Source of the DNA: a virus
Lineage: Duplodnaviria > Caudoviricetes
DNA: 64,000 nucleotides
Virus record (IMG/VR): IMGVR_UViG_3300042477_000769
Strand: one strand, 5' to 3'
Part shown: positions 8,640 to 30,768 of the stretch, piece after piece
Numbering within the stretch: position 1 is the stretch's first letter
Layout of the letters: every line of letters begins with the position of its first letter
Notes under the pieces: model-generated
Databases searched by the model: none
Seen by the model: the letters and a program-made list of their open reading frames with translations, nothing else
What the model was told of the DNA's origin: nothing
Position numbers and translations under genes: made by a program

Positions 8640-8957
8640 ATGCCTGATTTTGGAAATCCTAGAGCCCCGATTGATTATGGTTTTGATTATAATTTCTTTG
8701 CCAAACTTACTGTCAATAATGCTAATTATAATACAAATTGTGATATGATTATTAATTTAGCCGCTCCGACGTATGCGGTGTCGTTTCAGTTGGAGAGCGG
8801 GACCCGAATTGAGTACTCCTTTAACGGCATCACCACCCATGGCGACATGATCCTTTCCGAAGCCAGCACCAACCTATTATTTCAAAACAGAGTCATCTCT
8901 AAAATATGGTTTAGAGGCGATGGCTATGTTCGAGTAGAAGCATGGGCCATTAGATAA
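8640..8957 (+). CDS. Small beta-rich hypothetical protein, possibly virion-associated
   Basis: Strong SD (AGGAGGAG), 105 aa, contains a DGY motif. Confidence 0.6.
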   Translation: MPDFGNPRAPIDYGFDYNFFAKLTVNNANYNTNCDMIINLAAPTYAVSFQLESGTRIEYSFNGITTHGDMILSEASTNLLFQNRVISKIWFRGDGYVRVEAWAIR

Positions 8958-8972
8958 TTTATAAGAAAGACC

Positions 8973-9770
8973 ATGAAAGACAAAATTTGTAGCACCTGCC
9001 AAATTACTAAAGATATTTCTTGTTTTCACAAAAATAAAACCAAATTAGATGGATTAAGCAATATTTGCAAACCCTGTAAATCTTTATATTATCACGGATT
9101 TAAAAAAGAAAATACTAGAAAAATGTTGTTGCAACAACAGCTTAAACATTGTCCACAATGTCAAGAAATTAAACCTATTTCTTTATTCTTTAATAATAAA
9201 TCCTCAGCTAATAAACTGTCCACTTATTGCAAAACTTGTTCAGTCATTAAAAATAATCAATATTATCAACAACATAAGCCAAAATTAACCTGTCAAACTT
9301 GTACGACTTCTATTGCTAGAGGTAAATTTTGTCCAGAGTGTCGTATTATTCACAAAAAAGAATATCGAAAATTATTTGAAAGAAAGCAACGTCAACAGAT
9401 AGAATATCGGCTCAAGAATAATATTTCACGATCGGTTCGAGAGATGTTATTGTTAAGAAACAAAAGCAAAAGAAATCGCACAATTGTTAATTATTTAAAT
9501 TATTCGGTTAATGAATTAGTGGCTCATTTAGAATCTAAATTTGAGCCCTGGATGAATTGGGATAATTATGGAACATACAATAAAAATGTTTGGAATGACC
9601 AGGATATAAATACTTGGACATGGCAAATTGATCATATCATGCCTCATAGTTATTTCAATTATACCTCTTTAACAGAGGAAGCATTCCAGCAATGCTGGGA
9701 TCTGAATAATTTGAGACCTTTATCCGCCAAAGCCAATATACACAAAAGCAATTATTATGGCCAAAAATAA
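8973..9770 (+). CDS. HNH endonuclease with three N-terminal CxxC...CxxC zinc fingers (free-standing homing-endonuclease-like)
   Basis: HLESKFEPWMNWDNYG...WQIDHIMP...NNLRPLSAKAN; paralog of three other genes in the window. Confidence 0.85.
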   Translation: MKDKICSTCQITKDISCFHKNKTKLDGLSNICKPCKSLYYHGFKKENTRKMLLQQQLKHCPQCQEIKPISLFFNNKSSANKLSTYCKTCSVIKNNQYYQQHKPKLTCQTCTTSIARGKFCPECRIIHKKEYRKLFERKQRQQIEYRLKNNISRSVREMLLLRNKSKRNRTIVNYLNYSVNELVAHLESKFEPWMNWDNYGTYNKNVWNDQDINTWTWQIDHIMPHSYFNYTSLTEEAFQQCWDLNNLRPLSAKANIHKSNYYGQK

Positions 9771-10080
9771 ATTAATTCTTAATAAATGTGAAATTGAAGG
9801 GTGTCAAGAGACAGAAAATTTACATTTGCATCATATTATTGAAAGAACAGAATTAAATACCAATAATCATCCTTTTAATCTTAGTATTTTGTGTCCTAAT
9901 CATCATGCACATGTGCATAGTGGTAGATTAAAAATTATTGGAGTGTTCCCATCTACACAGTTACCGAATAAAAGAACCTTAATCTATGAATTAGATGGTA
10001 AAAAGAATGTAGACATAGATCGACCTTATATCCAATTTACTAATAAATCATTTAAAATTCATGGAGAAAGTAATGAGTAA
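9757..10080 (+). CDS. Small HNH endonuclease
   Basis: CEIEGC...LHLHHI...NLSILCPNHHAHVH. Confidence 0.85.
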   Translation: MAKNKLILNKCEIEGCQETENLHLHHIIERTELNTNNHPFNLSILCPNHHAHVHSGRLKIIGVFPSTQLPNKRTLIYELDGKKNVDIDRPYIQFTNKSFKIHGESNE

Positions 10081-10405
10081 GTTTAAAATTGATGCGACTA
10101 ATCCTGACAATATCAGTAATAAACCCACTAATGAAGCTGAGACTCGTAAAAAGTTTTTAACCGTGGCTAGTTGGGCCGGTCGTCAAAAAGATATGTTAAC
10201 TTTGTTTTATAAATTTGATAAATTAAGAAGAGAAGCTAAAACAGAAGAACAAAAAAAAGATCTAGGTAAAATCGGAGCGATTGAAGTATATAGATTATTA
10301 GGAGATTGTTTTGCTACTTTAAAAGCTAATGGAGCTTTAGTTCTTCCCGGTGTCGAACGTGGAGAATTATGGGTAGACGGAGAATTAGTATATAAAGAGA
10401 AATGA
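10073..10405 (+). CDS. Hypothetical protein (start revised to 10073)
   Basis: SD GGAG at 10063 upstream of ATG 10073. Confidence 0.6.
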   Translation: MSKFKIDATNPDNISNKPTNEAETRKKFLTVASWAGRQKDMLTLFYKFDKLRREAKTEEQKKDLGKIGAIEVYRLLGDCFATLKANGALVLPGVERGELWVDGELVYKEK

Positions 10406-10421
10406 TACGATTAAATCTTAA

Positions 10422-10471: not shown

Positions 10472-10484
10472 TTTAGGATAAGAC

Positions 10485-10724: not shown

Positions 10725-10725
10725 G

Positions 10726-11010: not shown

Positions 11011-11029
11011 GCCTGGTTCCTTAGGTTAA

Positions 11030-11200: not shown

Positions 11201-11202
11201 AA

Positions 11203-11589: not shown

Positions 11590-11595
11590 GATATC

Positions 11596-11665: not shown

Positions 11666-12007
11666 ATGAGCAACATTTTGCAATATATGCCAGGAATGCA
11701 GGCGACAATTTATTTAGAAACCAAAAGTAGTGATGGTTATCGAACAGATAGTCCCACTCTCCCAATGGTCAATAAAATTATTTTTCCGGCATTAACCTTA
11801 GCAGCTAACTATCCGAGTCCAATGACCAAAGTAGAGACTGGATTATATGTAGCTCAATTTACTCTTCCTACCGGAGCGGCTTCGATTGGCAGTTATTTAG
11901 TCGATATCTCCTATACTCATCCTACTACTAATATAGTAAATACTGATATTTATCAGGTTATTGTGACAGCACCCTATGGCAATTTTACAGTTAATACTAC
12001 TATATAA
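11666..12007 (+). CDS. Small Ig-like/beta-sandwich virion protein
   Basis: TGLYVAQFTLP...GSYLVDISY resembles the N-terminus of the next gene (IGKYSYIFTIP...GVFQDIWEG). Confidence 0.5.
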   Translation: MSNILQYMPGMQATIYLETKSSDGYRTDSPTLPMVNKIIFPALTLAANYPSPMTKVETGLYVAQFTLPTGAASIGSYLVDISYTHPTTNIVNTDIYQVIVTAPYGNFTVNTTI

Positions 12008-12034
12008 ATCTCATTAGAGATTGGAGACTTAATC

Positions 12035-12934
12035 ATGGTAATCAAAGCACGCGGAGAAACTTTAGATGTGACGGATCAAGTTAATTTGATCGTACAATTT
12101 AAAGATTCAGCAGGAAGCCCAGTTAATACTGATTCGTTTCCTAGAATTTCTATTGTTCAACCCAGCGGATTAGTCTTATTAGCTCCAACTTCTGCCGGAG
12201 TAACCCAAGTAGGTATCGGTAAATACTCTTATATTTTTACTATCCCTATTAATGGACCTTATGGGGTGTTTCAAGATATTTGGGAAGGGTATATTAATGG
12301 ATTTCGAGTGGAAGCCTTATTTAATTTTGTCGTGGTTAAAACCGATATTCCAGCAATCAATACTGATGGTTATGCTCATTTAGGTGATAGTGTTCCTTTT
12401 AATTACTCCCAAGCGGCCATTAAAAATATTAATAAATTATTAAAATCATTACGAGCCAGATTAAATAGTCAAGGTAAAGCCAAAGCCACAGATAGTTATG
12501 GTAATGTTATTTATGTAGATTGTGATATTTTTTCTATTGATATGTTAGTTACTTTCTTAGCTACTGCTTTATGGGACTTTAATCAAGTGCCATTTTTTAC
12601 ATTCTTTCAATTTGATGATGATAATTTCGTTGAACAATTTGGAGAAATTTTAGTAGAAGGTGCCACCCTCTATGCTTTAGCGTCTAAAGCGTTAATTGAA
12701 AGAGGAAGAGAGTTTCAAATTACCGATAATGGATTAAATTTTAATCCTCCTACCGTGAGTGATTTGATGAATACTCAGTATAGTAGTTTGTTGAGCCATT
12801 ACTGGGAAAAGTTGAAGTTCATAAAAGCCTCCCTCCGCCCTGCCCCTCGTGGCCTGGGCGTCTTTGGGATGAGTTCGGGGCTGAACCCGGCCTTCGCTAG
12901 ATTAAGACATCTGCGGGCACGCAGATTAATCTAG
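12035..12934 (+). CDS. Putative head-tail adaptor (neck) protein with an N-terminal Ig-like domain
   Basis: Helical C-terminal half with the adaptor-like pattern ALASKALIERGREFQITDNGLNF; position upstream of the tail module. Confidence 0.5.
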   Translation: MVIKARGETLDVTDQVNLIVQFKDSAGSPVNTDSFPRISIVQPSGLVLLAPTSAGVTQVGIGKYSYIFTIPINGPYGVFQDIWEGYINGFRVEALFNFVVVKTDIPAINTDGYAHLGDSVPFNYSQAAIKNINKLLKSLRARLNSQGKAKATDSYGNVIYVDCDIFSIDMLVTFLATALWDFNQVPFFTFFQFDDDNFVEQFGEILVEGATLYALASKALIERGREFQITDNGLNFNPPTVSDLMNTQYSSLLSHYWEKLKFIKASLRPAPRGLGVFGMSSGLNPAFARLRHLRARRLI

Positions 12935-12946
12935 CTCCCGCGCCCG

Positions 12947-13708
12947 CTAAACTCTTTTATTGCTATCTAATAAATTCATTTTAGAAGAATAAGGCCGAAG
13001 ATTATTAAGTCCCCAGCAGGCTAAAAATTGAGGGTCAGCCATAGAAGTAAAATAAAAAGAAGATTGCGGAATAATATGATCTATTTGCCAAGTCCAAGTA
13101 GATGGATCATGATCTTGCCAACTATTTTTTCGATAGGAACCATAATTACTCCAATGCATCCAGGGTTCAAATTGTGACTCCAAATGTTGAATTAAATTAT
13201 CAATAGAATATCCTAAATAATCTAAACAAGAGTTCTTCTGTTTAGCAGAACCAACAGATTTTAAATAATTATTAATGCTGGCAGAAATATTATAACGCAG
13301 CTTAAAACTTATCTTAGTGGAGCGTTGATAGCGCTGATAATGTCGATGATATTCTCTAATCTGTTTTATATTATTAGCTTGATATATTTTATTTTGTTCC
13401 AAAATACGTTGTTTGTTTAATGAATAATAATTTTTATTGTACTCTTTCTTTTCTTCTGGATGTTGTTGATAAGATTGAGATTCTGTTAATAAGATTTTCT
13501 CTTTATTATCTTGGTAGTACTTTTGTTTGCGGTGTTGTATGGCAGATTTATTATTTTGATAATAAGTTTTATCATATTGTTGTTGATAATTTTTAATTTT
13601 ATCTTTATTTTTAGCTCGATATTCTCTCATGCGAATGGTATTACAGTCAGTACACAATCCATTCTTTTTAACATGGCTTTCTTGTTGACAATTCATACAA
13701 GCTTTCAT
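12947..13708 (-). CDS. HNH endonuclease (homing-like) with a zinc finger and ~15-aa helical repeats
   Basis: HLESQFEPWMHWSNYG...WQIDHIIPQS...NNLRPYSSKMN. Confidence 0.85.
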   Translation of the reverse strand: MKACMNCQQESHVKKNGLCTDCNTIRMREYRAKNKDKIKNYQQQYDKTYYQNNKSAIQHRKQKYYQDNKEKILLTESQSYQQHPEEKKEYNKNYYSLNKQRILEQNKIYQANNIKQIREYHRHYQRYQRSTKISFKLRYNISASINNYLKSVGSAKQKNSCLDYLGYSIDNLIQHLESQFEPWMHWSNYGSYRKNSWQDHDPSTWTWQIDHIIPQSSFYFTSMADPQFLACWGLNNLRPYSSKMNLLDSNKRV

Positions 13709-14193
13709 TTTTTTAGTGGAAACGTAATGGTCATTCCATTTTTTTCAGTCGATAAAAATAAATCATTAACGGTGTGTTTTATTTCTGGTATTGAAAAAGA
13801 AGATATTTCAGAATCATGGAATGACAGAGTAATATGAGGGGTAAAATCTCTAAAAATTTTAGAGAATTCAATATTATTATTTTCTAATGTTTGTATTATT
13901 TTATTTCTAATAGAAAATAAAGGTAATGATTTCACTTTTGCAAAAATAGGAACTGGAGTGTTGGCTATTTTAGGGAAACAAGCAATAGTTTTAGTAGTAA
14001 TATCAAATGGTTCGCAATTTTTAATAGTATCATAAAGAATTGGCAATATGGCGGACGCTTTAGCTATTGATAATTTATCAAAATAAACTAAAGTAATATG
14101 GTAATTAATAATTTCTTCTTTAGTGCCAGGGAGGTTAACTTTAACAAGTTGAGTTCCAATATTTTCTGGTATTTTTATTCCGAGGTAAGCCAT
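13705..14193 (-). CDS. 2H phosphoesterase (ThpR/Acb1-like)
   Basis: Two HxT motifs: YHITLVY and FTPHITLSF. Confidence 0.85.
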   Translation of the reverse strand: MAYLGIKIPENIGTQLVKVNLPGTKEEIINYHITLVYFDKLSIAKASAILPILYDTIKNCEPFDITTKTIACFPKIANTPVPIFAKVKSLPLFSIRNKIIQTLENNNIEFSKIFRDFTPHITLSFHDSEISSFSIPEIKHTVNDLFLSTEKNGMTITFPLKK

Positions 14194-14199
14194 GCATTC

Positions 14200-14228
14200 A
14201 ATATAACCCGTTTAGTTTCTCATATTAA
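14200..14228 (-). promoter_or_regulatory. Sigma70-type promoter, leaderless geometry
   Basis: Minus strand TTAATA-N17-TATATT-N6-ATG(14193); no SD. Confidence 0.5.
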
Positions 14229-14261
14229 TGAGAAAATATATGTGTTAATTGGCATTTATAT

Positions 14262-14771
14262 GTGAAAAAAATTCCGTTAGCTGAGATTAAAGCCTTACCT
14301 CCTACTTTTTTTCTTCGTTTGATCAAAAAAATGAAGAAAAAACTTAAGGAAGATGAAGTAATGCGTAAAATCTTCCAAGAATATGAGACAGATATCAATG
14401 AATTGGATTTTTATCCGATGAAATTTGGTAATTTAGACGTGTCAGCTAAAACAGATCATGGAATTATTATTTTTAATTATAAGCTATTGTGTGATGGTGA
14501 TTTCGAAAAAGATTATAGTTATGCTATTCATGAAGTTACCCATGTTTTACAGCAAACGACCGGCAATAAACCCACTCAAGGGGCAGATGATGGAAGTTAT
14601 CTAGATAATCCTCATGAAAAAGAAGGTTTTCAAAATCAAGTAGAATATATTGCTAATGATTTAGGAGAAGAGGCCGCAGAAGATTATGTGGATAACTTAT
14701 TAGAGTATCATGATATTGAAGACAATAAAGAATTCAAAAATAAAAAAGAAACCTTGATGTCTAAGGTGTAA
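14262..14771 (+). CDS. Zincin-like metallopeptidase domain protein
   Basis: YAIHEVTHVLQQ (HExxH) and a downstream YLDNPHEKEGF glutamate motif. Confidence 0.7.
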   Translation: MKKIPLAEIKALPPTFFLRLIKKMKKKLKEDEVMRKIFQEYETDINELDFYPMKFGNLDVSAKTDHGIIIFNYKLLCDGDFEKDYSYAIHEVTHVLQQTTGNKPTQGADDGSYLDNPHEKEGFQNQVEYIANDLGEEAAEDYVDNLLEYHDIEDNKEFKNKKETLMSKV

Positions 14772-14782
14772 CTGGAGTAATC

Positions 14783-16735
14783 ATGGTATTTTATCCTAAT
14801 CCCGTTAGAGCTGGAACACAAGTAGTTAGTAGTTTAGGCGATGGTTATACTATTAATGTCAAATGGTTTCAAGCCATTCCATCCGTTAAAAGCAATAAAA
14901 TTGCGTATAATATTTATTATTCAACAGTTAAAGACGCGGTGTTTTTAGAAGGGCCCAAATTACTATCTATTGATGAATGTTTGGAAGCCAATATTATTGG
15001 TTTAACGCCAGGACAAGAATATTTTGTGGCAGTCCGGCCCATTGAATATAATTCTAATTTTTATAATTTATCATTATTACCTATTGCTCATGATAATTTA
15101 AGATATTACCCACAAAGCATTTTACGAGAAAATATCACTAATAGTTCTTTACTTATTCCTTTATTAGATGTGACTGATTTTCCTTCTACCGGTGTTATTA
15201 AAGTAGGAGTTGAGTTAATTCAATATTCTTCTGTGGATATTGCCAATAACAATTTAATTGTTCCCGCTCCTACTGCCGCTACTCCCGCCCAATTGGTTGA
15301 TTTAGGTGGTGGTAATTTTTATGAACCTTTAGTCTCCAATGTAGGACAAGGTAGTATAAATAATTTATCTGTAGGAACTGGAATTACTGAAACCTGGACA
15401 ATTCGATGTGTAGGAGTACAGAGAGATCCTTCTAATAATCCAATTGCTAATACGGCTAAATTTATTGCTATTGGATCCATTACTGGAACTCGATATGATG
15501 GATATGGTAATCAAATTATTTGGCAAGCTAATGGTACAGTAGTTAGTAATGGAGTATTAACTTTTGGAATTACAGAAACTTCTCCAGTTTTTCGTGAGGG
15601 AGATGGATTTAGGGTAGAAGTAATTGGAGCAGTAGCCGGAAGTAGTGGAGGAAGAGGCTATGATAATAGCGTAGCTCGGTTACATACTACTGCTGGATTT
15701 GATGGTTTGCGTATTTGGGACACTAATATTCCATTTTTTGTCATTGGAGAAAGCCAGATGTTTGACCGTATTTTTATGTGTCAATCTAGGTTTGAATATC
15801 CTAATCATGCATTTACCTTAGTAGATGGGTATCATCAAGTATTAACAGATATTTTATCTACTGATTTATCGGAAGCCGATGCTTCTAACGTTAATTTTCC
15901 AATGTATGATTATGCTGGATATCATCGTACAGATCCAGTACAATTATTAAATGGCACTTGTGTGGGCAGCTATTTAGGCGGAGAGCAAGGGTGCATTGAT
16001 GGATACGGCAATTTTCAAATATTTAGAGGCATGTCATTACAGGATCAAAACACTCAACGTCAAGAGATTTTGTTATCAGTCACAGGAAGAGATGCAATTT
16101 TAATTCGTCGAGTCCAAACTGGAATTACCTGTTCTTGTTATTTAGCCTCTAGTGAATATCAAGATGATAGATGTCCTAAATGTTATGGAACTAAATTTGT
16201 GTTTGGTTACCAGCAATATTTTAATCCTAGAATTTCTAGTGGTCGTATTAGAGTCAGAATTGGCCCCACACCAGAAGGATTAAAAATGTATGAAGCTGGT
16301 TTAGAGTCAGAGTTCCCAATTGATGTTTGGACATTAACCGTACCAACTATTAAAATGAGAGATGTAATAGTATTATTTGATCAAACTGGAGTTAATGAAG
16401 AATTTCGATATGAGGTGACTGAAGTTAATAGAAATAATACTATTGTAGGATTACAAGGTGGCCAAAAATTTAGAGCTATTCGAGTCAGAAAAACAGATCC
16501 AATTTATCAAATTAGAGTGTTTAGAGATAGCTCTATGTTTCCGAGTAAATTAAATACTAGCATTGGATTTGTCACAGGAATACCACCACATACTCATGAA
16601 ATTACGGTAAGTGAAAAAATAACTGCGGTTAATCAAATTAATCAAACAACTGATATTTCTGCTTCTCATAATCATCCCATTGTTAATGGGGTAGTCATGG
16701 AAGTATTAGGACATACTCATACGATTATTATTTGA
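14783..16735 (+). CDS. Putative head-closure/neck protein with an FN3-like N-terminus, a Zn-binding Cys cluster and a His-rich tail
   Basis: INVKW...YNIYY...YFVAVR (FN3-like); CSC...CPKC; beta-barrel C-terminal half (RYEVTEVNR). Confidence 0.55.
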   Translation: MVFYPNPVRAGTQVVSSLGDGYTINVKWFQAIPSVKSNKIAYNIYYSTVKDAVFLEGPKLLSIDECLEANIIGLTPGQEYFVAVRPIEYNSNFYNLSLLPIAHDNLRYYPQSILRENITNSSLLIPLLDVTDFPSTGVIKVGVELIQYSSVDIANNNLIVPAPTAATPAQLVDLGGGNFYEPLVSNVGQGSINNLSVGTGITETWTIRCVGVQRDPSNNPIANTAKFIAIGSITGTRYDGYGNQIIWQANGTVVSNGVLTFGITETSPVFREGDGFRVEVIGAVAGSSGGRGYDNSVARLHTTAGFDGLRIWDTNIPFFVIGESQMFDRIFMCQSRFEYPNHAFTLVDGYHQVLTDILSTDLSEADASNVNFPMYDYAGYHRTDPVQLLNGTCVGSYLGGEQGCIDGYGNFQIFRGMSLQDQNTQRQEILLSVTGRDAILIRRVQTGITCSCYLASSEYQDDRCPKCYGTKFVFGYQQYFNPRISSGRIRVRIGPTPEGLKMYEAGLESEFPIDVWTLTVPTIKMRDVIVLFDQTGVNEEFRYEVTEVNRNNTIVGLQGGQKFRAIRVRKTDPIYQIRVFRDSSMFPSKLNTSIGFVTGIPPHTHEITVSEKITAVNQINQTTDISASHNHPIVNGVVMEVLGHTHTIII

Positions 16736-16784
16736 AATAATAATAAAAGGACATACAGATAAATCTTTATAATACGAGAAATTA

Positions 16785-18140: not shown

Positions 18141-18186
18141 TATTCAATGAATACTAATTAAATTGTATCCAATACAAGGAGTTTGT

Positions 18187-18567
18187 ATGGAACAAATCTT
18201 TTTAGGATTTATAACCTGGCAATTTTTATTTTTTTGTTTAGCTCTTGGTGCATTAGTATATGTAGTTAGAACTTCAGTAGAATTTGCTTTACATAATACT
18301 AACAAAAATGCAAAGTGGTGGAGAGAATTGGTTCTCCCAATTTTTCCAATTGTGTTAGGTCCAACAGTTACTTTTTTTATTACTGTTTATCCATATCCTG
18401 AAGGATTTGATGGTGCCGGAGGTCGTTGGATTTTCGGATTAGTCGCGGGTTTTACTTCTGGATTTGTAGTAAGAATTTATAAATCTTGGCTATCTGGTAA
18501 AGTAACTGATTTAATCAGCCGACTAAAAGTAACCTTAACGCCAAATAAAGAAGAACCAAAAGAATAA
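18187..18567 (+). CDS. Membrane protein with three hydrophobic segments, holin-like (start revised to 18187)
   Basis: SD AGGAG at 18177; three hydrophobic stretches and a charged C-terminus. Confidence 0.55.
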   Translation: MEQIFLGFITWQFLFFCLALGALVYVVRTSVEFALHNTNKNAKWWRELVLPIFPIVLGPTVTFFITVYPYPEGFDGAGGRWIFGLVAGFTSGFVVRIYKSWLSGKVTDLISRLKVTLTPNKEEPKE

Positions 18568-18605
18568 TAACAAATTTAGTTATATAAATTACCGATGGTA
18601 GGATT

Positions 18606-21600: not shown

Positions 21601-24600
21601 AAGTAACTCCTGGAATTAGCTCCACTTTAAAAATAAACTGGTTAGTCTGTATTAATTCTTTAGGAGATTATGAAATCTTACCGTTATTAGATCCAGATCC
21701 TATTTTAAATACGTCTAGCAATACTAATAGAGCTTTTGTTGGGCAAAACTTAGTCAATGGCGGAAGTTATAATTTAAATGGGACTACTTTCTCTAATGTT
21801 ATTAATAATAGAAAAGATTTAACCTTATTATATATTGCTGCCGCCACTTCAGTAGCTATTAATCCGCCTACTGTTAGCTTAGTAGTTCATGATATTAGAA
21901 AATTTGTCAATGATGGCGATACTATCTTACCATTAAAATTAACTTCAGCTAATAGTCAAGGTAATTTTAAAAACATTGTGCCAATTTTTAATTGGATTAA
22001 ATATAATAATGCTTTTAATGGTACCGTTATTGTTAAAGGCGCGAATGTTAATAATGCAACTGTTGCTGCTGCCACAGAATTACATTTTACTAGTGGAAAT
22101 GTTACTATAGATGGTCAAAATAATGCAACTATTACTTTTAATTCTGCCTTAACAGTAGGATCTAATTTAACATTTAAAGATTCGATATTAAATTTAAATG
22201 CTGGCATGTTTATTAAAACAAATGCCACTATTACCAATTTAATATTTGAAGGCTGCACGTTAAACGTTATTTTACCATCTTCTGCACCTAATACTACTGC
22301 GCTATTAGATATTAATAATGGAAGTAATATTAAATTTAAAGATTGTACTTTTAATGTAACTTGGAATAAAAGTTTGCCAGTTCAATCTTATGGATTGGAA
22401 ACTACTTTTCCCTGTTTAATTAGAGCGACTAATACGAGTAATTTTATCGTAGATAATTGTGTGATGTCTGTAGATTATACTACTGCTAGCGTAGGAGTTC
22501 CTCCTGGCGGACATATTGTGCTCATAGATAGTGATGATGCAATTATTAATAACTGTACTTTTAGTGGAAATACTGATAAAACTTTAACTATTAAAAGCTC
22601 TAATAATGTTAAATTTACAAATTGTAGTGTATCATCTACTTATAATCCCGTAGATGATGGATTTGATGCTACTAATTTGGTTAGTTCAGAAAGTGGTTAT
22701 GTTTATTGTAGAATGGATAATCCAGTAGATAACATTTTAATTGATAATATTTCTTTTAATTATGTTCCGGCAGGAGATCCAGCTGCAGATACGGATCTAA
22801 ATATTAGATATCCATTTATTAGTTTTGAATTAGTAGCGTTAAATGCCACTTTAAGCAACTTAACCATTAATAATTGTAAATTTAATCATTTAAATACTGG
22901 AGCAGTAGTTACTGATATTAGACCAGGTATTGCTATTGTCAATACATATTCTGCTTTAGCTGGACCCACATTACCTAATGCCCAACAAGTTAATTTAATT
23001 AATGCTAATATTACTAAGAATATTGGTAATAGAAACCAATCTATTATCATTACTTCTAGACGCGATAGCGCTGGATTAATGAATTATCCTGGATTAGCGG
23101 CTCAAGGATGTAACATTAAAGATAATATTTGCGGAAATATTGGATATTTTATTTCTAGCGCCGTACAAACAGTTAATTTATCTCCCAACTATACTAGTTT
23201 GCCAGATAAATTAACAGGTTTAACTATTGAAAACAATGTCTGTCATTATATTTATAATTGTGACGAAGATGGTTACTCTTTCTTAATGTCTAAATTAGTA
23301 GGCGGCTCTAGTTCTAATCGTTGCGCGTATCCAAGTGGGTATGTAGATATTAATAAAAATAAGGCCAATTGGATTCATGTCGGTTGTGCTTATGAACAAC
23401 AAAGCGGGCTAAATATTACTAATAACGTACTTCAAGCATATTCAGAATCTTATTTAAATATGTTTGGAGCTAATGAAGGTAATTTTTATGGACCAGTCTC
23501 TGGTACTCGTTCTTTTAAGTATGCTATTTTTGTAAGTACTAATAAATATAAGATGAATCCAATACAAAGCCCTTCAGAAGGGAATGATACTTCCATTTTA
23601 ATTTCTGGAAATATTGTTAATCAGGGTTACTGGTATTTATCTAATGGTGTAGTTAACAATTATACTTATACTAATGGCTATATTTTCTGTCAAGGTTCTA
23701 GCACTATTACAGATAATATTTTAAGAGGTGCTGGTGTAGGCAATTTAATTCTAGTTGGTGGTTTACGTAATATTATCAAGGGAAATAAAATTTATCGAGA
23801 TAATATTGATGTTACCTCTTACATTAGATTTGATAATTTTGATACTCCTAATTGGGATAGTAACCCAGACGGAGAGGGTGCTGGTTCTCAAGGCTTAGTA
23901 GTAGATAATTTCTTTGATAAACCAACAATTAATGCTGTCGGAGTAACCGGATCATTTAACGGATTATCTTTTTTTGGAGCGATAAATATTCCTTCTACTG
24001 CGGCACCTGGATGGATTGTAGAAAGAAATAAAAATCAAACAGGAATTGCCATTGTTCCCTGGACTAATGGTCATATATTATATCATACTACAGGTGGATC
24101 TGCTTTTGGACCAGATGGTTATGATGACCTTTATATGAAACCTGCAAATAATAATCCTTCAGGAACTTTTACTGGAGAATATCGCTCTAGAGTTTTAAGA
24201 TTTAGAGATACAGAATCTGTTGGTTTTAGATTATGGGGAGTTCAGGTTAATTTAGAGGCATTTTTACCAAATGGAGTTCGAGTGTTAGAAGTTTCTTCGG
24301 CTATTCGATCTTTTGGCACCCAAGTTGATTATAATCCAGCATCTCCTCCAGCAGCTACTTCTAATTTTTGGATTAATTTAAGTTCACAAGATATGCAAAA
24401 TATCGGAGTAGGAACTTTTTCTTTAGATAATTTTAGCACAGTTTCTGATAACGATGATGGTGTATTTGAAATTAATAACACTGTCTTTTCTAATGTTACA
24501 GGCGGAGATTTTAATTCTAGTAGCTTAGCTCTTCCTTTTGAAATTGACTTAACTAACTATAATGGAAATGATATTTCTAATAGATACATTACTGGCCGAG

Positions 24601-24704
24601 GAATTGGTATAACTTTATCTTTAGATGCTAGATGGGCAAGAGATTCTATTTTTTTTGGTACTGAGTTCTTAATTTCTCCAGTACTTGTTACATATCGATG
24701 GTAA
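18606..24704 (+). CDS. 2032-aa virion appendage protein with a parallel beta-helix (pectin-lyase-like) region
   Basis: Repeats NLIFEGCTL, NIKFKDCTF, NFIVDNCVM, IINNCTFSG, NLTINNCKF, LTIENNVC and LISGNIV at about 22100-23850. Confidence 0.65.
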   Translation: MSFPNTFDDDTTIPFVNDNIVEIGGEAINASRNAIFNIEQNIGLNAQGSMPTIAARLNVSLLPDGNIRPSAIASMGLVTLPIVDSQIADWAAIPERKLQLDHRTQDLFNYIRDLSGDVNTAIGWINSTGIKLEPHLLGQIYRHELSQINVSSAPINFLDNNLRLLRDNSDSYKLIKDINSELLAHQWADGSPFGTISNIITNDGSTFPNNFAHTAGGIFINTSRFATIPQTADDLQAFAEFIDSTSIFLLGTRLQNLYSNGISRESRSTSLLNDGYGAPIIPSTPAIAFLKNLGNSSSPVDDINNGDDIVELLPPTSVLSNNSFDQKFALVQVGDIIRVNYGTIEVAFVIKEKKYIQNGGNKRFIIRIAGKNIQYAPNASVRIDKPLVNINKYGVLAVSAVNSGNASVPASLITVNPRGAQALGLGFNPDQFDASHYMLYLALFTTGSPNDGYIILPPIDVTGNAGTTPGAYTLNSVVEATNNAFRRAGFNYRFVAFQYQGEFGIALADSYGNAGFSILNAVVNSNGTLNETETNIVFPNNVVSMFSDDGTTGPDPLGFGPTGSAVASPPYQASYPSAEAAVLPTKLFLPLKRNNYYVNGTEREKLNLDIDQVLDTYGDGYWPATIVAQTITPGPSGSVKTTYRVALDLSASQLKIGKTLVVQSLDGTGTSPNDFGRFIIENISLSCSPSNYTDITVLDAVHGLGTTGSSGLVLGVGGKVALYFSQDSIALNAESATDFSEVSPFKRFFEIYVDENGNTFTHERARFNSGGISPLIINDNIPLVNNSELIKLNFVKVSPKLTGYPYGSINKITLFMNSYDNVTGNYDGYLAAWDGNLATPATHRGPVVSGKRGLVSRFYDETYLDYIDIVFDFNSTVSSFADQKLDIQLFPSLALNSQIMTIGSCQYNDVSNVINYINDDRQFGNISEKDLTTSALNYIAAPERLLHGNGVIKGFELQNIPGLTNPRRGNIYLTGGELLVNGKFIQKNDETVIIPAMREVTPGISSTLKINWLVCINSLGDYEILPLLDPDPILNTSSNTNRAFVGQNLVNGGSYNLNGTTFSNVINNRKDLTLLYIAAATSVAINPPTVSLVVHDIRKFVNDGDTILPLKLTSANSQGNFKNIVPIFNWIKYNNAFNGTVIVKGANVNNATVAAATELHFTSGNVTIDGQNNATITFNSALTVGSNLTFKDSILNLNAGMFIKTNATITNLIFEGCTLNVILPSSAPNTTALLDINNGSNIKFKDCTFNVTWNKSLPVQSYGLETTFPCLIRATNTSNFIVDNCVMSVDYTTASVGVPPGGHIVLIDSDDAIINNCTFSGNTDKTLTIKSSNNVKFTNCSVSSTYNPVDDGFDATNLVSSESGYVYCRMDNPVDNILIDNISFNYVPAGDPAADTDLNIRYPFISFELVALNATLSNLTINNCKFNHLNTGAVVTDIRPGIAIVNTYSALAGPTLPNAQQVNLINANITKNIGNRNQSIIITSRRDSAGLMNYPGLAAQGCNIKDNICGNIGYFISSAVQTVNLSPNYTSLPDKLTGLTIENNVCHYIYNCDEDGYSFLMSKLVGGSSSNRCAYPSGYVDINKNKANWIHVGCAYEQQSGLNITNNVLQAYSESYLNMFGANEGNFYGPVSGTRSFKYAIFVSTNKYKMNPIQSPSEGNDTSILISGNIVNQGYWYLSNGVVNNYTYTNGYIFCQGSSTITDNILRGAGVGNLILVGGLRNIIKGNKIYRDNIDVTSYIRFDNFDTPNWDSNPDGEGAGSQGLVVDNFFDKPTINAVGVTGSFNGLSFFGAINIPSTAAPGWIVERNKNQTGIAIVPWTNGHILYHTTGGSAFGPDGYDDLYMKPANNNPSGTFTGEYRSRVLRFRDTESVGFRLWGVQVNLEAFLPNGVRVLEVSSAIRSFGTQVDYNPASPPAATSNFWINLSSQDMQNIGVGTFSLDNFSTVSDNDDGVFEINNTVFSNVTGGDFNSSSLALPFEIDLTNYNGNDISNRYITGRGIGITLSLDARWARDSIFFGTEFLISPVLVTYRW

Positions 24705-24707
24705 TCT

Positions 24708-25529
24708 ATGGGCGCAAATAATTTCTTTAAAAGCAATTTAATGTCTTTACATAACGTGGTACAAGCCTCCATGTTAGTGTATCCTAAAGAAGTTATTATT
24801 GCTACGTTAAGAGATTATTTCTCTAAAGATGATTATTATCATTATGCCAAAGATCAATGGGGTTTTGCTAACACTATCGATCATACTGATTTACCTCCAG
24901 GGGCCGATATTCCAACCTCTCATAATCAATATGGAGCCAATGAAGAGGGATTAAGCACTCGGGTGTTTATTGGAGAAAATTATCGATATAATGGAATTTA
25001 TTATCCAGCTATTTTAGTCAAAAGCGGCGGCAGTACTTATGTGCCTATCTCTATTAATAGAGAACAGGAAGCTGTACAATATGAAGATATTGTATATGAA
25101 GATGGATATGGTAATCAAACTGTAGTTTCTAAACCTAAAGCTTTTGTGACAGCTGGTGCCTGGGAAGGCAGTATTATTATTGATATTTTATCTAGAAGCT
25201 TGCGAGCAAGAGATGATTTATCAGAAGCTATTGCTATGTGTTTTACTGAATTTTATTTTGATAGTTTATATGATATTGGAATTATTGTAAAACCTCCAAT
25301 TATTGGAGGCGCCAGCGAAACTGATGATAGAAATGATAAGCTTTTTCGCCAAAGTATTACGTTAAATGTTAGAACTGAATGGCGAAGAGAGATTCCAGTA
25401 GGCAATTTAATTGATACTATCTTTTTTACCGTTATTTTTGAAGATATTAGCAAGCCCGCTAATCCAGTACCTGCTAATTTAACTATTAATACCGAAGTTA
25501 GTTTAACTGATTTGTTAATCAATCTATGA
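24708..25529 (+). CDS. Putative tail terminator/completion protein
   Basis: YPAILVKSGG, GSIIIDILSRS...RDDL and LFRQSITL; directly upstream of the sheath. Confidence 0.6.
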   Translation: MGANNFFKSNLMSLHNVVQASMLVYPKEVIIATLRDYFSKDDYYHYAKDQWGFANTIDHTDLPPGADIPTSHNQYGANEEGLSTRVFIGENYRYNGIYYPAILVKSGGSTYVPISINREQEAVQYEDIVYEDGYGNQTVVSKPKAFVTAGAWEGSIIIDILSRSLRARDDLSEAIAMCFTEFYFDSLYDIGIIVKPPIIGGASETDDRNDKLFRQSITLNVRTEWRREIPVGNLIDTIFFTVIFEDISKPANPVPANLTINTEVSLTDLLINL

Positions 25530-26203
25530 AAATTTGCACCAAATGCCAGATAGAAAAATCTTTATCTGATTTTGGATTAAGAAAAAGAAAGTTAAAGTCA
25601 GGAATTAAAGAATATTATTCTATTTACTGCAAAACTTGCATTAACCAAACGGCTAAAAATTTTAGAAAACTTCATCCTTATCAAACAAGCGAATCTATCA
25701 AACTATCTAAACAAAAATGGGAAGAAAATAATAAAGAAGCTAGAAAACAATATCAAAAAAACTATTATCTTCTTCACAAGGAAGATTTTCAAAAACGCGC
25801 TAATAATCAACAATATAAAGAAAACAAACGCAAATATCATCAACAAAGACGACAAGATCCAATTTTTAGAATAAAAGAGAATATTTCTAATGCTATTTAC
25901 AAGGCATTAGTGAAAGGTAAAACATCTAAAGCTGGAAATAGTATCCTTCAGTTTTTAGGATATTCTATCCAGGATTTAAAAAGTCATTTAGAAAGTTTGT
26001 TTACTGATAATTTTAATTGGGATAATTATGGCGTTGTTTGGCATATTGATCATATTATTCCACATAGTAATTTTTCTTATCTGTCGATGACAGATCCATC
26101 TTTTACGCAATGTTGGGCCTTAGCAAATTTAAGACCGTTAGCTGCCGCTCAAAATATGAGAGATGGAAGTACTCGAGTCAGACATTTAAAGAAGAATATA
26201 TGA
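25526..26203 (+). CDS. HNH endonuclease (homing-like)
   Basis: CTKC...CKTC finger; HLESLF...NWDNYG..WHIDHIIP...NLRPL...N. Confidence 0.85.
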   Translation: MKICTKCQIEKSLSDFGLRKRKLKSGIKEYYSIYCKTCINQTAKNFRKLHPYQTSESIKLSKQKWEENNKEARKQYQKNYYLLHKEDFQKRANNQQYKENKRKYHQQRRQDPIFRIKENISNAIYKALVKGKTSKAGNSILQFLGYSIQDLKSHLESLFTDNFNWDNYGVVWHIDHIIPHSNFSYLSMTDPSFTQCWALANLRPLAAAQNMRDGSTRVRHLKKNI

Positions 26204-26249
26204 ATAATACTATATAACAATGAATATTTACTTTTAATGGAGTTTCATA

Positions 26250-29200
26250 ATGGCTAACATTCCAGGCGCAACAAATGTCCTACCCGGAGTTTTTACAGAC
26301 GTAATTACTCAATCCCGTGGCGTCTCCGTTCCTGGTGGTTCTCGTATAACTGCTATGATTGGAGAGGGCTCAACAGATGAGACTTTAGTATCACAAGCGG
26401 TAGGTGGTGGGCAAGACGGCCTTAACCCTAGCTATACTGGAACAACTGGTAGAGATGGTAGACACTTTCAATTATCAAGTTTTCCATTAATTTCTAATCG
26501 TACTACTTTATTTAAAAATGGAATTCCATTAAGAGGTTTAGAATCAACTATTGATACTAATCCATTTAGCAATTCTTTTGATTACCGAATTGATATTACT
26601 ACTGGCCAAATAGAATTGCAACGCGCTCATTTAGTTGACCAAGGTGGTTCTTTATGGACCGCCCTTTCTACCAATGTGGGGTTAGGATCAGTTAATAATT
26701 TAACTTTAGTAGATCCTAATGCACAACCAGAAAACTGGACGATTCGTTGTATCAAAGTTCAACGTGATGCGTTAAATAATCCGATTGGTGGAACCGCCTC
26801 TTTCTTAGCTTTTGGCTCTATTTCGGGAGCAAAATTAGATGCTAACGGCAATCCTATTGTTTGGATTGCTAATAATAATGTAGTGAGCAATGGTGTGATT
26901 AGCTTCTCTATTTCGGAAACTATGGTAGGACCCAATGCAGTATCTCCTTTTAGAGAGGGAGATGGATTCTTAGTAGTGGTAGATAGTGGTGTGTTAGTTA
27001 GAAATGATTCCTTAACAGCTAATTATATTGCTACGGCCAATCTAAATGATCCTATTTTATTGCAAGGTTTAGGTGATGTAGTTACCCGTCATGGATTACC
27101 CAGTTTAACTAATAATTTATCGTTAGGCGCCCAATTAGCTTTTGCGAATAATGCTCCGGCGTTATTAACAGTGCAAGCAGCACCGGCTCTACCACGTAGA
27201 ACTTCTTACGTTTTAGATCAATCAGTAAATGCTTTATCTCCAGACCAAGATGATTTTATTTTCCCATTACCAGTAGGCGTAGTTCCAGATTTTAATTCAG
27301 AAATTCATTTCTTTGTTAAAAACAACGCTACCAATGTCGAAACGCAATTATTGCCTAATAAGTTAACTTATTATACCTTAGATACGGCAGGCAATCCTAC
27401 TACTAGCTCCTTTATTTTTGACAATACTCCTGCCCCTGGCGGATATTCATATTTCTATACCGTCAAAGAAGGCTTAGAAGCGATGAGCTTTGGAGAAGAT
27501 GGTTATATTGGTCGCAATTTAGCTTTCTTTAATCAAGGTGAGTTTAGCTCTGCCTCTCAAGTCTTTGATGCGAGCTATGTAGGTAAAGCTTTAAAGATTA
27601 TTGATTCAGTTAACTCTGCCAATATTGGGGTGTTCCGAGTTACCGCTGTTAATAATGGTAAATTATATGTGGTAGCAGATGGTAATACCTTCCCGCCATC
27701 TACTTTAACTGCCAGCCCCACTTTCTTGTCTGATTTTGTTAATGAATCAAGCGTAGGTTTTAAAGTAATTAATCCTGTTACTGGATTAGAAGTAGTAGGC
27801 GGTTCTGGTACAAATGGAGTTATTGTTACCTCTGGAGCTTCTACAGGTACTGCTACTTTACGTAGTACCACTGTAGCCTTTACTGCTATTAGCGGTATTA
27901 CTAATTATCGATTACAGATAAACGGATCTACTATTTCTACAGATGCATTACCAGTAGGTAATGATGGTCTGTATGATATTACGTCAGCCGCTACATTTAG
28001 CATTAATGCTGCCACTAATGCTAGCCCCATTGCTATTACTACTACTGCAAATCATAATTTAACAACAGGTAAAACGGTAACTATTACTGGTGTAGTAGGT
28101 AATACGGCAGCTAATGGTACCTTTGTCATTACTGTTACTGGGTTGAATTCATTTACTCTGAACGGTTCAACAGGTAATGGTGCCTATACTAGCGGTGGAA
28201 CAGTATTCCCACACGTAATTACTATTAAAAAAGCCATTGTTAATGAAAATAATCTAGAGTTTATTGTTCAAGATCCTAGCGCTAATAGTAATTATATTGT
28301 GTTAAATAAAAATATCGTTCCCAATGGTAATGGTTTACGCGTTACTATTGTCGACGCTAGAGATGCAACTTTCTTTGATGCGGGCTGGATTAATGCCTTA
28401 GAATCATTAGAAGCAGTAGAGTGCGATATTTTGGTACCTTTACCAAAACAAACTATTTCTATCATCTTCCAAAATGCCTTAAGTCATTGTTTAGCTATGA
28501 GTAATATTCGTAACAAAAAAGAACGAGTCTTATTTATCGGAGCTATTAATGGATTAACCCCAGATAATTTAACGGGAGCACAATCTGCCGCCGTAGAAGA
28601 TATCGGCATCTTAGAAGGTATTCAAGGAGAAACTGTCACTGATATTTTGTCAGGTAATATTGAAGACTTAGCTAATTATTCAGTACCTAATGCTTTCGGT
28701 AATACCTTCCGAGCAGTTTATTTCTATCCAGACCAAATTGTGGTCCAAGCCGGAACAGAAAATGTCTTAATTGATGGTTTCTATTTAGCTGCCGCTGCTG
28801 CTGGATATGAATCGGCCGATGTAAGATTGGAAAATCCATTAACTAATAAAGTTTTAAGCGGATTTACCATCTTAAGAAATAAACAATTCTCTCCACAAAC
28901 ATTAGAAGCTTTAGCTACTGCCGGTGTTACTACTTTACAACCTGTGGCTGGTGGTGGTCGAGTAGTTTGGGGTATCACCACGACTCAAAGTGGCTTCCCT
29001 GAAGAGCAAGAAATCTCTATCGTCTTTATTAGAGACCGAGTAGCTAAGACTTTAAGAGCAGGATTCCAAGGATTTATTGGATTAGCAGAGACTCCAAATA
29101 CTGGAGCTATCTTAAATACTCGTGGAGTAATCTTACTCAACTCGTTAGTGTCACAAGGATTAATTACTCAATATAAGGACTTATCGGTGCAGAGAGACGA

Positions 29201-29294
29201 GGTTGATCCGCGTCAGTGGAATATCTCGGTTAGAGTACAACCGACATATCCCGTTAACTTCATCTACATCCGCGTCAGCCTCGGTCAACTATAA
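26250..29294 (+). CDS. Contractile tail sheath protein with large inserted domains
   Basis: N-terminal PGVFT; C-terminal ENPLTNKVLSGF, GVTTLQPV, EEQEISIVFIRDRV and ISVRVQPTYPVNFIYI. Confidence 0.92.
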   Translation: MANIPGATNVLPGVFTDVITQSRGVSVPGGSRITAMIGEGSTDETLVSQAVGGGQDGLNPSYTGTTGRDGRHFQLSSFPLISNRTTLFKNGIPLRGLESTIDTNPFSNSFDYRIDITTGQIELQRAHLVDQGGSLWTALSTNVGLGSVNNLTLVDPNAQPENWTIRCIKVQRDALNNPIGGTASFLAFGSISGAKLDANGNPIVWIANNNVVSNGVISFSISETMVGPNAVSPFREGDGFLVVVDSGVLVRNDSLTANYIATANLNDPILLQGLGDVVTRHGLPSLTNNLSLGAQLAFANNAPALLTVQAAPALPRRTSYVLDQSVNALSPDQDDFIFPLPVGVVPDFNSEIHFFVKNNATNVETQLLPNKLTYYTLDTAGNPTTSSFIFDNTPAPGGYSYFYTVKEGLEAMSFGEDGYIGRNLAFFNQGEFSSASQVFDASYVGKALKIIDSVNSANIGVFRVTAVNNGKLYVVADGNTFPPSTLTASPTFLSDFVNESSVGFKVINPVTGLEVVGGSGTNGVIVTSGASTGTATLRSTTVAFTAISGITNYRLQINGSTISTDALPVGNDGLYDITSAATFSINAATNASPIAITTTANHNLTTGKTVTITGVVGNTAANGTFVITVTGLNSFTLNGSTGNGAYTSGGTVFPHVITIKKAIVNENNLEFIVQDPSANSNYIVLNKNIVPNGNGLRVTIVDARDATFFDAGWINALESLEAVECDILVPLPKQTISIIFQNALSHCLAMSNIRNKKERVLFIGAINGLTPDNLTGAQSAAVEDIGILEGIQGETVTDILSGNIEDLANYSVPNAFGNTFRAVYFYPDQIVVQAGTENVLIDGFYLAAAAAGYESADVRLENPLTNKVLSGFTILRNKQFSPQTLEALATAGVTTLQPVAGGGRVVWGITTTQSGFPEEQEISIVFIRDRVAKTLRAGFQGFIGLAETPNTGAILNTRGVILLNSLVSQGLITQYKDLSVQRDEVDPRQWNISVRVQPTYPVNFIYIRVSLGQL

Positions 29295-29319
29295 TCCTCT
29301 CAGATATAGTTGGTAGAGA

Positions 29320-30051
29320 ATGGCTACCCAATTAACTCCATCACAATTAGATAAAATACAAGAGCTCTACCATCAAGGTTTGGGCTCTCGTAAAATTGCC
29401 CTAATAATTGGAGTTAACAGAAGTACTATTCAAAGAAGTTATCAACAACTTCAGTTAAATAGTGCGGCTAAAAAATTACCTCGATTAGCTTCTCAATATA
29501 CGGAAAAATATTGCAAAATTTGTGGCGATCTTAAAAAGATAGAGTTTTTTAGAAAACGATGCAATCAGAAAACACAACGAATTTCTTTTGAAAGCTATTG
29601 TAAAGAGTGCGAATATAGAAGAAATAACGAGAGATTAAAAAGAGCAGCTAAAATATTAAGACAGACTAATCCTAATTTTGTTATTAGAAAAAGTCTGTCT
29701 TATTTTATTTGGAAATCATTGGCCAAATCTAATTCCAGCAAACAAGATCAGAGTTGCTTGCAATTTCTTCCATATGCCATAGAGAAACTTAGATTACATT
29801 TAGAGTCACAGTTTGAACCCTGGATGAACTGGGATAATCATGGCAGTTATCGTAAACATACCTGGAACGATGATGATAGTAGTACTTGGAGTTGGCAAAT
29901 AGATCATATTATTCCACAATCAGATTTGCCGTATACTAGTATGGCAGAAGAAAATTTTCACAAAAGTTGGGCGTTAAATAATTTGAGACCTTTGTCAGCT
30001 AAGCAAAATTTATTAGATGGAGCCAGGAAAATAAGGCATAAAATTATATAA
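29320..30051 (+). CDS. HNH endonuclease (homing-like) with an N-terminal HTH and zinc finger
   Basis: LYHQGLGSRKIALIIGVNRSTI (HTH); CKIC...CKEC; FEPWMNWDNHG...WQIDHIIPQS. Confidence 0.85.
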   Translation: MATQLTPSQLDKIQELYHQGLGSRKIALIIGVNRSTIQRSYQQLQLNSAAKKLPRLASQYTEKYCKICGDLKKIEFFRKRCNQKTQRISFESYCKECEYRRNNERLKRAAKILRQTNPNFVIRKSLSYFIWKSLAKSNSSKQDQSCLQFLPYAIEKLRLHLESQFEPWMNWDNHGSYRKHTWNDDDSSTWSWQIDHIIPQSDLPYTSMAEENFHKSWALNNLRPLSAKQNLLDGARKIRHKII

Positions 30052-30081
30052 GATAAACACTATATTGTTTAGGAGTTTACG

Positions 30082-30768
30082 ATGGCTAATGCCGCTAATA
30101 CAGGATCTACACTTACTGTGGCTGGTAGCAATGTTAATAAAACTAGCACTGCTATTTCCACTAATATTATTATTTTAGTTAATAATCAGGCCGTAGGTGC
30201 GGTACAACAAATGCAAATTAATGAGCAGAGAAATATTACAATGATCGATGAAGTCGGCACAGATGGCCATATTGATTCTGTTCCTACTAGCTCTACTAAT
30301 ATCAGTGGGAGTTGTACAAGAATTAGATTTGATCGTTTAAGAATTACTGAAGCTTTTAGTCGAGGATTTATCCATGTAGCTTCTCAAGTGTATCCTTTTG
30401 ATATTGTTATTTTAGATAAACAAAAACGAGATCAAGGAAGTCAAATTTCTACTATTATTAAAAATGTATGGATTGAAAGTCTAGGTTATACTTATGATGC
30501 TGGTAATTGGGTAATTTCTGAAAATATGGGATGGAAAGCTGAGACTATCTTTAGCGTGTTGAACAATGGTAGTTCGCAACCAGTGGCTGTGGGCGGAGAG
30601 CTTGGAATTAAGCATATGGGTGCGGGACCGAATGGTATTGTGAACATTACGAGCGGAGATGGTATTACCAACATCGAGCAATTAGTCGACACCGGCGCAA
30701 GTGGTCGTCGTGGCTCTCTCGATGCCGCCGGCTTAATTGACATTGGTTCTTCTGGAGACCTCTTCTAA
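30082..30768 (+). CDS. Tail tube protein
   Basis: VGAVQQMQINEQRNI..IDEVG.DG and ISGSCTRIRF; follows the sheath. Confidence 0.85.
   Translation: MANAANTGSTLTVAGSNVNKTSTAISTNIIILVNNQAVGAVQQMQINEQRNITMIDEVGTDGHIDSVPTSSTNISGSCTRIRFDRLRITEAFSRGFIHVASQVYPFDIVILDKQKRDQGSQISTIIKNVWIESLGYTYDAGNWVISENMGWKAETIFSVLNNGSSQPVAVGGELGIKHMGAGPNGIVNITSGDGITNIEQLVDTGASGRRGSLDAAGLIDIGSSGDLF

Follow-up and report, generated by a model that had tools for sequence, protein, structure and literature searches.

What leaves a short, silent patch of G- and C-ending codons in a conserved gene of an AT-rich phage, and why should several such patches lie beside free-standing endonuclease genes? The question is raised by a stretch of 64,000 nucleotides (nt) from a virus of the Caudoviricetes (Duplodnaviria; IMG/VR record IMGVR_UViG_3300042477_000769), referred to in full as the window, in which a reading of the sequence alone had counted four such patches by hand. 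We find that these islands of elevated GC3 (the fraction of codons ending in G or C) exist, that they are tied to nuclease genes, that they are synonymous and native to the proteins they encode, that they are missing in nuclease-free relatives, and that G- and C-ending codons are ordered within them. The explanation that we tentatively favour, putting it somewhat below an even chance, is that free-standing homing nucleases left the islands as footprints where they have their targets in the carrier genome, through recoding in place that gives self-immunity and was possibly fed by biased repair.

The source is a jumbo phage of 33% GC from lake-water metagenomes, whose DNA is present in at least 15 runs; the longest contig carrying the protein of g12035, one of the genes in question, measures 259 kb. 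Nucleotide and protein searches returned no close relative among isolated phages, and the relatives in IMG/VR form a large family of 200-480 kb with core-gene protein identities of 45-85%. By exact-protein look-ups the window was joined to 10.9 kb upstream and 27.9 kb downstream, giving a stitched sequence of 102.8 kb (an L number marks other contigs and loci). GC3 was scanned with a 40-codon sliding window in every open reading frame (ORF), against a background of 0.2016 (20,975 codons, 47 ORFs of the window); at least 20 of 40 codons made an island, its bounds were set by maximum-likelihood segmentation, and a nuclease gene counted as near when it lay within 300 nt. Since the independent JGI, NCBI and Logan assemblies (2020 and 2024) are 100% identical across the islands, an assembly artefact is ruled out.

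The four hand counts proved exact on recount (29/38 at 8760-8873, 31/48 at 12788-12931, 23/39 at 29175-29291 and 34/71 at 30553-30765), and the contrast within gene g8640, with 7/40 at 8640-8759 against the 29/38 that follow, was reproduced. In the scan of all ORFs the first three patches are the top three peaks of the window, at 8754-8873 (29/40, binomial P 1e-12), 12776-12895 (28/40, 1e-11) and 29163-29282 (23/40, 2e-7), while the patch in the tail tube gene is weaker (20/40) and equal to an orphan peak at 35999-36118. Codon listings of the islands show only third-position changes, together with codon-family switches for Leu, Arg and Ser. The islands and the genes that carry them are as follows.

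8640-8957, + strand: g8640, carrier of island 1; 105 residues, no Pfam or PHROG match
8760-8873, + strand: island 1; GC3 29/38; G-ending codons left, C-ending right, switch at about 8812
12035-12934, + strand: g12035; 299 residues, no family; the tail is the most conserved part of the protein
12788-12895, + strand: island 2; GC3 27/36
26250-29294, + strand: tail sheath gene; Phage_sheath_1/1C, phrog_2839
29175-29282, + strand: island 3, at the sheath end; GC3 23/36
30082-30768, + strand: tail tube gene; weak phrog_985 match, place after the sheath conserved
30526-30765, + strand: island 4, at the tube end; GC3 38/80, the weakest of the four; G-ending codons left, C-ending right, switch at about 30639

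The left edge of island 1 (8757/8760) is abrupt, and about 100 nt of near-normal codons follow the island before the nuclease gene at 8973. Around island 2 the enrichment extends to the stop codon of g12035 and then through a GC-rich spacer of 12 nt. An inverted repeat at 12896-12933 forms a strong hairpin over the final codons and the stop of g12035, ahead of the convergent HNH gene, and may act as a bidirectional terminator.

Five nuclease genes are relevant within the window.

8973-9770, + strand: free-standing HNH gene; phrog_1035 (7e-24), N-terminal zinc-ribbon (Lar-like) part, HNH core intact
12947-13708, - strand: free-standing HNH gene, convergent with g12035; no family match, paralog of 8973, 25526 and 29320 (blastp 1e-38 to 1e-47)
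25526-26203, + strand: HNH paralog; phrog_1035, HNH core intact, 14-residue deletion directly before the core
29320-30051, + strand: free-standing HNH gene with an N-terminal HTH_38; phrog_1035
30784-31668, + strand: zinc-finger (DUF4379/DUF723) nuclease gene; phrog_681/559 family

In the four HNH paralogs a common C-terminal domain, about 140 residues long, contains the HNH core, and the N-terminal DNA-binding parts differ. All of them retain a W-x-IDHI-P...NLRP...N core, and their Pfam HNH_4 match stays under the cut-off. Profile searches of the nucleases against the PDB were empty or irrelevant and gave no relative of the HNH paralogs by sequence, and a fold model of an HNH protein, at a pLDDT of 42, was too poor for use. 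The phrog_559/681 family is matched at 1e-36 to 1e-44 by four copies (30784-31668, L122:15341-16456, L122:17814-18767 and L128:2032-3003), which have repeated DUF4379 zinc ribbons and a conserved D-G/F-Y...E-Y/H-x-G block. PHROGs labels the family 'HNH endonuclease'; with no HNH motif evident, its catalytic fold may be of another nuclease type.

As the sequence-only reading had described them, the nuclease genes are AT-rich, with a GC3 of 0.20-0.26 against 0.47-0.76 in the adjoining islands, and they are free-standing and mobile: they occur sporadically among about 200 related loci, as ORFs of their own where relatives have the flanking genes adjacent. At the sheath-tube junction an HNH gene intervenes in 11 of 72 relatives, most of which have sheath and tube adjacent; the nuclease gene at 30784 is missing from the tube junction in nearly all relatives, and at g8640 the insertion is found in this phage alone among the loci fetched. 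The gene that directly follows g8640 in relatives is a small core HNH gene (9757-10080 in the window, 107 residues), which was rejected as a mobile nuclease: it keeps the same place in most relatives, at 65-73% identity. The 3' junction of g12035 is occupied by window-type HNH homologs in L075-77, L081, L083/84 and L090, by a phrog_4645 nuclease in L078, L079 and L088, and by a phrog_374 HNH in L086. With three unrelated nuclease families at one junction and a highly conserved tail beside it, the tail of g12035 looks like a genuine homing target. At the same junction, the Logan contig L103 (1770-3101) equals the window through g12035 and the final 50 or so HNH codons, continues into a different HNH paralog of 219 residues, and then into an unrelated, structural-looking gene; several other contigs also end within HNH gene 12947 (compare the window from 13100 onward). 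Either the nuclease N-terminal domain has been swapped in the strain behind L103, or the contig is a chimera assembled at the paralog repeat.

The islands lie far nearer to nuclease genes than chance would place them: the 102.8 kb hold eight islands and eight nuclease genes, and six of the islands have a nuclease gene no more than 300 nt away, where the null fraction is 5.3% (P 5.7e-7). The 39 kb of new sequence contained three more phrog_559 nuclease genes and three new islands, two of which lie directly upstream of new phrog_559 nuclease genes.

L122:14975-15073: GT4 island, in a GT4-like glycosyltransferase gene; 26/40, P 1e-9, 271 nt from the nuclease gene
L122:17585-17716: GT2 island, in the GT2 gene; 21/40, 110 nt from the nuclease gene

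Relatives have GT4 directly next to GT2, which shows that the nuclease-plus-methyltransferase block between them here is an insertion. Both islands belong to the second of two clusters of glycosyltransferase, methyltransferase and sugar-nucleotide enzyme genes near virion genes (window 2-8624 and L122:14225-17827). All six nuclease-linked islands are on the low-coordinate side of their nuclease gene, five of them upstream of a co-oriented nuclease and island 2 adjoining the 3' end of a convergent one; between islands 1, GT4 and GT2 and their nuclease genes lie 100, 271 and 110 nt of normal codons, respectively. The suggestion that cut sites might be predictable from composition alone thus stood in one respect, the rule linking island and nuclease having held in the new sequence of this phage, and failed as a general rule, most nuclease-bearing relatives being without a strong island.

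At homologous codons, relatives without the nuclease have no island or only a weak version of it, as the earlier reading required. For the sheath tail, the GC3 excess of the window (+0.34) is the largest of 73 loci, against a mean of -0.006 in the 61 nuclease-free ones. The corresponding values are +0.32 against 0.00 +/- 0.08 in GT2 and +0.25 against +0.05 +/- 0.07 in GT4, and the island of g8640 (GC3 0.76) is missing in all five nuclease-free relatives, which range from 0.08 to 0.36, at or under their own background. The tail of g12035 shows a modest intrinsic rise in nuclease-free relatives, of about +0.1 to +0.19 against +0.44 in the window, and the maximum among 22 relatives is +0.27. The sheath has a C-run in its final 14 or so codons that is common to nuclease-free close relatives, so that the right part of island 3 is partly shared and its G-rich left part is specific to the window; in the tube gene, too, relatives prefer C-ending codons to some extent, with a C-run in its tail that nuclease-free ones share. 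Parts of islands 2-4 are therefore inherited. The pattern expected of a self-immunity polymorphism, present in the carrier and absent from nuclease-free relatives, is thus found, in part only at g12035 and in the sheath C-run. An island scan of 99 loci gave nothing beyond P 4e-9, the best being the g12035 tails of L078 and L081, both beside nucleases; with most nuclease-bearing relatives devoid of strong islands, the strong signal is lineage-specific. In a comparison of synonymous divergence (dS), silent sites were saturated across the family, and the frequency of identical codons among relatives dips in the g12035 tail, a stretch rich in six-fold codons, and shows no dip in GT2 or GT4.

The islands are not uniformly GC-rich. 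In five of the six nuclease-adjacent ones, G-ending codons lie on the left and C-ending codons on the right, so that the strand with its 3' end toward the island centre is G-rich on both sides. Position tests for this two-fold (dyad) arrangement, run within the likelihood bounds, gave z values of 3.3, 0.3, 3.0 and 3.7 for islands 1-4 and of 2.7 and 3.2 for the two glycosyltransferase islands, with a combined Stouffer z of 6.6 (p 1.5e-11; range 6.6-7.6), or 4.5 when only four-fold sites are used; random coding windows, as a control, had a mean of -0.05 and a standard deviation of 0.97. At four-fold sites, G rises from a background of 10% to 48% on the left side of the switch, and C from 14% to 49% on the right side. 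GT2 and GT4 of relatives lack the structure. A central double-strand break would show this symmetry once its ends are resected, and so would repair synthesis that is primed at both ends. It is possible, if rather doubtful, that the islands are break-centred repair footprints, in which repeated cutting and repair wrote G onto the 3'-ending strands and the switch points mark the cleavage sites to within a few tens of bases; if so, candidate cleavage points would be at about 8812, 29230, 30639, L122:15025 and L122:17654. Chi, the sequence recognised by RecBCD and AddAB, is likewise G-rich on the strand ending 3' at the break, so that the G-rich strand is not the same to the left and to the right of a break. 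The islands share this polarity, but no oriented, Chi-like k-mer is convincingly common to the island halves, and no oriented octamer is shared.

Based on these results, we propose how the islands may have arisen. The target of each nuclease would be a coding stretch that is conserved and that mostly falls in the 3' part of the neighbouring gene at lower coordinates. Phages without the nuclease would keep in this stretch the A/T-ending codons typical of the genome, while in the present phage silent positions over 100-240 nt would have been changed in place to G or C with the protein kept. The carrier allele would then be unlike the cleavable allele, conferring the self-immunity that has been proposed for T4 MobE. 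Repeated repair of a central break or nick would have provided the raw changes, a source suggested by the G-rich strand running 3' to the centre, and selection against self-cleavage would have retained them. That the cut site lies inside the island, that recoding lowers cleavage and that repair supplied the changes is what we infer, the location of the cut from proximity and from the switch between G and C. This scheme is compatible with one of the two options raised by the sequence-only reading, target sites recoded against self-cleavage. Free-standing nucleases are known to have cleavage sites away from the nuclease gene (PMC2988022), and for MobE it has been proposed that polymorphisms at the target protect the phage's own genome (PMC2790892).

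Several observations weigh against this proposal. The recognition sites of characterised homing nucleases span about 14-40 bp and are thus shorter than the islands. PI-SceI and PI-PspI cleave targets altered at every wobble position (PMC3159444), so that silent recoding is not sure to protect. Two of the eight nuclease genes, at 25526 and L128:2032-3003, have no island, the former on neither flank, and at two or three islands a resident nuclease gene is missing. In g12035 the island has no dyad. Carriers of the same nuclease family do not in general show the signal: nuclease-bearing sheath loci average only +0.07, and the nuclease-bearing L075-77, L083/84 and L086 have little or no island at g12035, though immunity would be needed there too. 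Finally, a closely related empty-site allele was not found. Exact-protein look-ups with g12035, the tube gene and the small HNH returned no contigs other than those in which both the nuclease genes and the islands are unchanged, and contigs of four lake runs across 12000-31900 gave fragmentary cover of the same phage, none bridging an empty site. One X12 contig end has six differences at 30690-30711, five of them silent changes from G/C to A/T, at a depth of 2.6 that is too thin for use. Inactivation of the two nucleases that lack islands was considered and rejected, their catalytic cores appearing intact.

The orphan enrichments comprise one row of the window and two rises beyond it, and a minor rise lies on the far side of a nuclease gene.

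35999-36118, + strand: orphan island in g35774; 20/40, mainly G-ending, no resident nuclease gene nearby
31727-31795, + strand: minor G-rich GC3 rise at the 5' end of g31685; 15/23, on the far side of nuclease gene 30784

Relatives L214 and L221 have a window-type HNH at the g34911-g35774 junction, which adjoins the site of the orphan island. Downstream, GC3 rises in a ResIII helicase gene (L126:16854-16964, 20/40) and in a DnaB gene (about L126:20327-20446, 18/40), with no nuclease gene near; helicase and DnaB genes are frequent targets of homing elements. A cluster of another kind was noted 190-260 nt left of island 1, where contig L117 differs from the window by six G-to-A changes in 75 nt (8500, 8511, 8523, 8544, 8545, 8574). 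Each falls on the first or second position of a codon in gene 7839-8624, four of the six in AGT context, and their strand-coordinated appearance is hypermutation- or deamination-like.

One can ask whether the islands need any immunity role at all. A serious rival, in our estimate improbable, regards them as the neutral by-product of strand-asymmetric, biased break repair: breaks or nicks made by the nuclease would be repaired with G favoured on 3'-ending strands (C on newly made ones), by a form of GC-biased gene conversion or by biased repair synthesis, and once purifying selection had acted, the silent changes alone would remain visible. The dyad centred in five of the six islands is as expected of a symmetric, two-fold process acting around a break, at four-fold sites a single base is enriched per side, and the GC-rich spacer after island 2 is non-coding; a length of 100-240 nt would also suit a repair tract more than a recognition site, if tracts have the sizes that we assume here. 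However, the left edge of island 1 is abrupt, with no gradient, the genome of an immune carrier should seldom be cut, there is little of the signal in relatives that have these nuclease families, and our literature search brought up no such repair bias for phages. The other option of the sequence-only reading, in which the islands would be co-conversion tracts taken over from a GC-richer relative as the nuclease genes homed in, fared worse, and we consider such an import disfavoured and quite unlikely. Homing does co-convert flanks (PMC2988022), the edges of islands can be sharp, the g12035 island holds a few rare residues (G278, S280), and GC-rich relatives may be missed by the collections searched. 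Yet the GC3 of nuclease genes follows that of the host across relatives (r 0.86) and is host-like here, three islands are split from the nuclease gene by normal codons where a tract should be contiguous, and rare residues are not in excess in island peptides (11/214 against 26/796). Island and rest of gene agree in their identities to relatives, with Spearman coefficients of 0.73-0.86 and the same top relatives, g12035 being uninformative in this respect. No relative exceeds a GC3 of about 0.53, against 0.64-0.76 in the islands, the codon-family combination of island 2 is unmatched among the 2.9 million viral contigs of IMG/VR, and a uniformly GC-rich donor would not produce an internal switch from G to C. 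A model of displaced gene tails was also rejected, a second copy of the island peptides being absent from the 102.8 kb.

Two further explanations place the cause in the expression of the genes or in the genes themselves. The islands could be expression devices, in which clusters of rare G/C-ending codons, or local RNA or DNA structure, throttle translation or transcription into the nuclease genes. The position of five of the six islands upstream of a co-oriented nuclease gene and the hairpin over the end of g12035 would fit such a role, and T4 nuclease genes are under tight regulation by hairpins and terminators (PMC2790892). We nevertheless hold it to be very unlikely: RNA folding was no better than that of shuffled sequences (z +0.8, -1.9, -1.6 and +0.3, the only near-significant value, -1.9, being due to the 12896-12933 hairpin), promoter and terminator scans gave nothing above shuffles, and no motif or repeat is common to the islands. 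In addition, one island lies at the 3' end of a convergent nuclease gene, three stop 100-270 nt before the nuclease start, slower translation of sheath and tube would be costly, and the switch from G to C is left unexplained. Alternatively, conserved and highly expressed segments of the host genes could have an intrinsic codon preference, with nuclease proximity coincidental. The modest rise in the g12035 tail of nuclease-free relatives, the C-runs that such relatives have in sheath and tube tails and the orphan islands in g35774 and the helicase gene point in this direction, but the excess of the window is an outlier at every site, the proximity has a P of about 6e-7, and the prediction held in new sequence; judged from these comparisons, the intrinsic explanation is largely refuted and hardly credible.

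How, then, does the favoured reading, recoded targets of resident nucleases, relate to known systems? GC-biased gene conversion, mainly known in eukaryotes and debated in bacteria, also raises GC locally at silent sites near recombination hotspots; a strand switch from G to C is not expected of it, and where it should be graded and free of strand asymmetry, the islands have base-specific sides and, in island 1, an abrupt left edge. Our literature search found no paper on GC-biased gene conversion at phage homing-nuclease sites. Co-conversion tracts carry donor sequence and run from the cut site to the nuclease gene, whereas the islands are protein-native, compositionally unlike the nuclease genes and often separate from them. 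Marker exclusion and co-conversion by the Seg nucleases of T-even phages (PMC2988022) are nevertheless similar in that nuclease-driven conversion reshapes the flanks, with cut sites away from the nuclease gene. T4 MobE and its target nrdB (Wilson and Edgell 2009, PMC2790892) likewise combine a free-standing HNH gene between conserved genes with a target at a distance in the neighbouring conserved gene, and escape from nicking has been proposed to rest on nucleotide polymorphisms over a stretch coding for a conserved peptide. As far as the available text of that report goes, the polymorphic stretch spans 18 nt (nrdB nucleotides 114-131) against 100-240 nt of near-complete wobble recoding here, no compositional signature or G-then-C pattern is described for T4, and cleavage is demonstrated for MobE, where for the present nucleases it is predicted. 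In ICP1 phages (Barth et al. 2023, PMC10448857), comparative genomics places homing nuclease genes at the flanks of recombination boundaries; a term search of that paper gave nothing on synonymous or GC3 composition and one mention of GC content, for AP2-domain targeting. Full-text searches, whose coverage excludes subscription journals, likewise returned no account of silent islands, be they compositional or strand-patterned, next to homing nuclease genes of phages.

Recombination between phages is driven to a large extent by homing nucleases, whose cut sites have become known in no more than a few laboratory phages. If the islands mark targets, cut sites and self-immunity alleles would be readable from sequence in some lineages, uncultured phages included. 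The G-then-C structure offers a testable hint of a base- and strand-specific repair mark in this phage, which would bear on the evolution of composition at non-eukaryotic recombination hotspots. If the break-centred reading is true, the islands would record a previously undescribed base- and strand-biased break repair in a phage, readable from a single genome sequence.

Some further features of the phage were noted. The sheath (26250-29294) and an upstream protein of 650 residues (14783-16735) have a segment of 121 residues in common, at 54% identity, and the sheath contains an E1_FCCH-like insertion (Pfam 3e-8). Downstream of the window, a tubulin/TubZ-like gene (L126:14105-15463) lies beside lysozyme, helicase, DnaB and ribonucleotide reductase genes. 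Upstream, 7.9-0.95 kb before the window start, L128:2997-9925 forms a single ORF of 2309 residues (table 11) with internal repeats of 72-77% nucleotide identity, which is given as eight genes in the JGI record and as one gene in the NCBI record.

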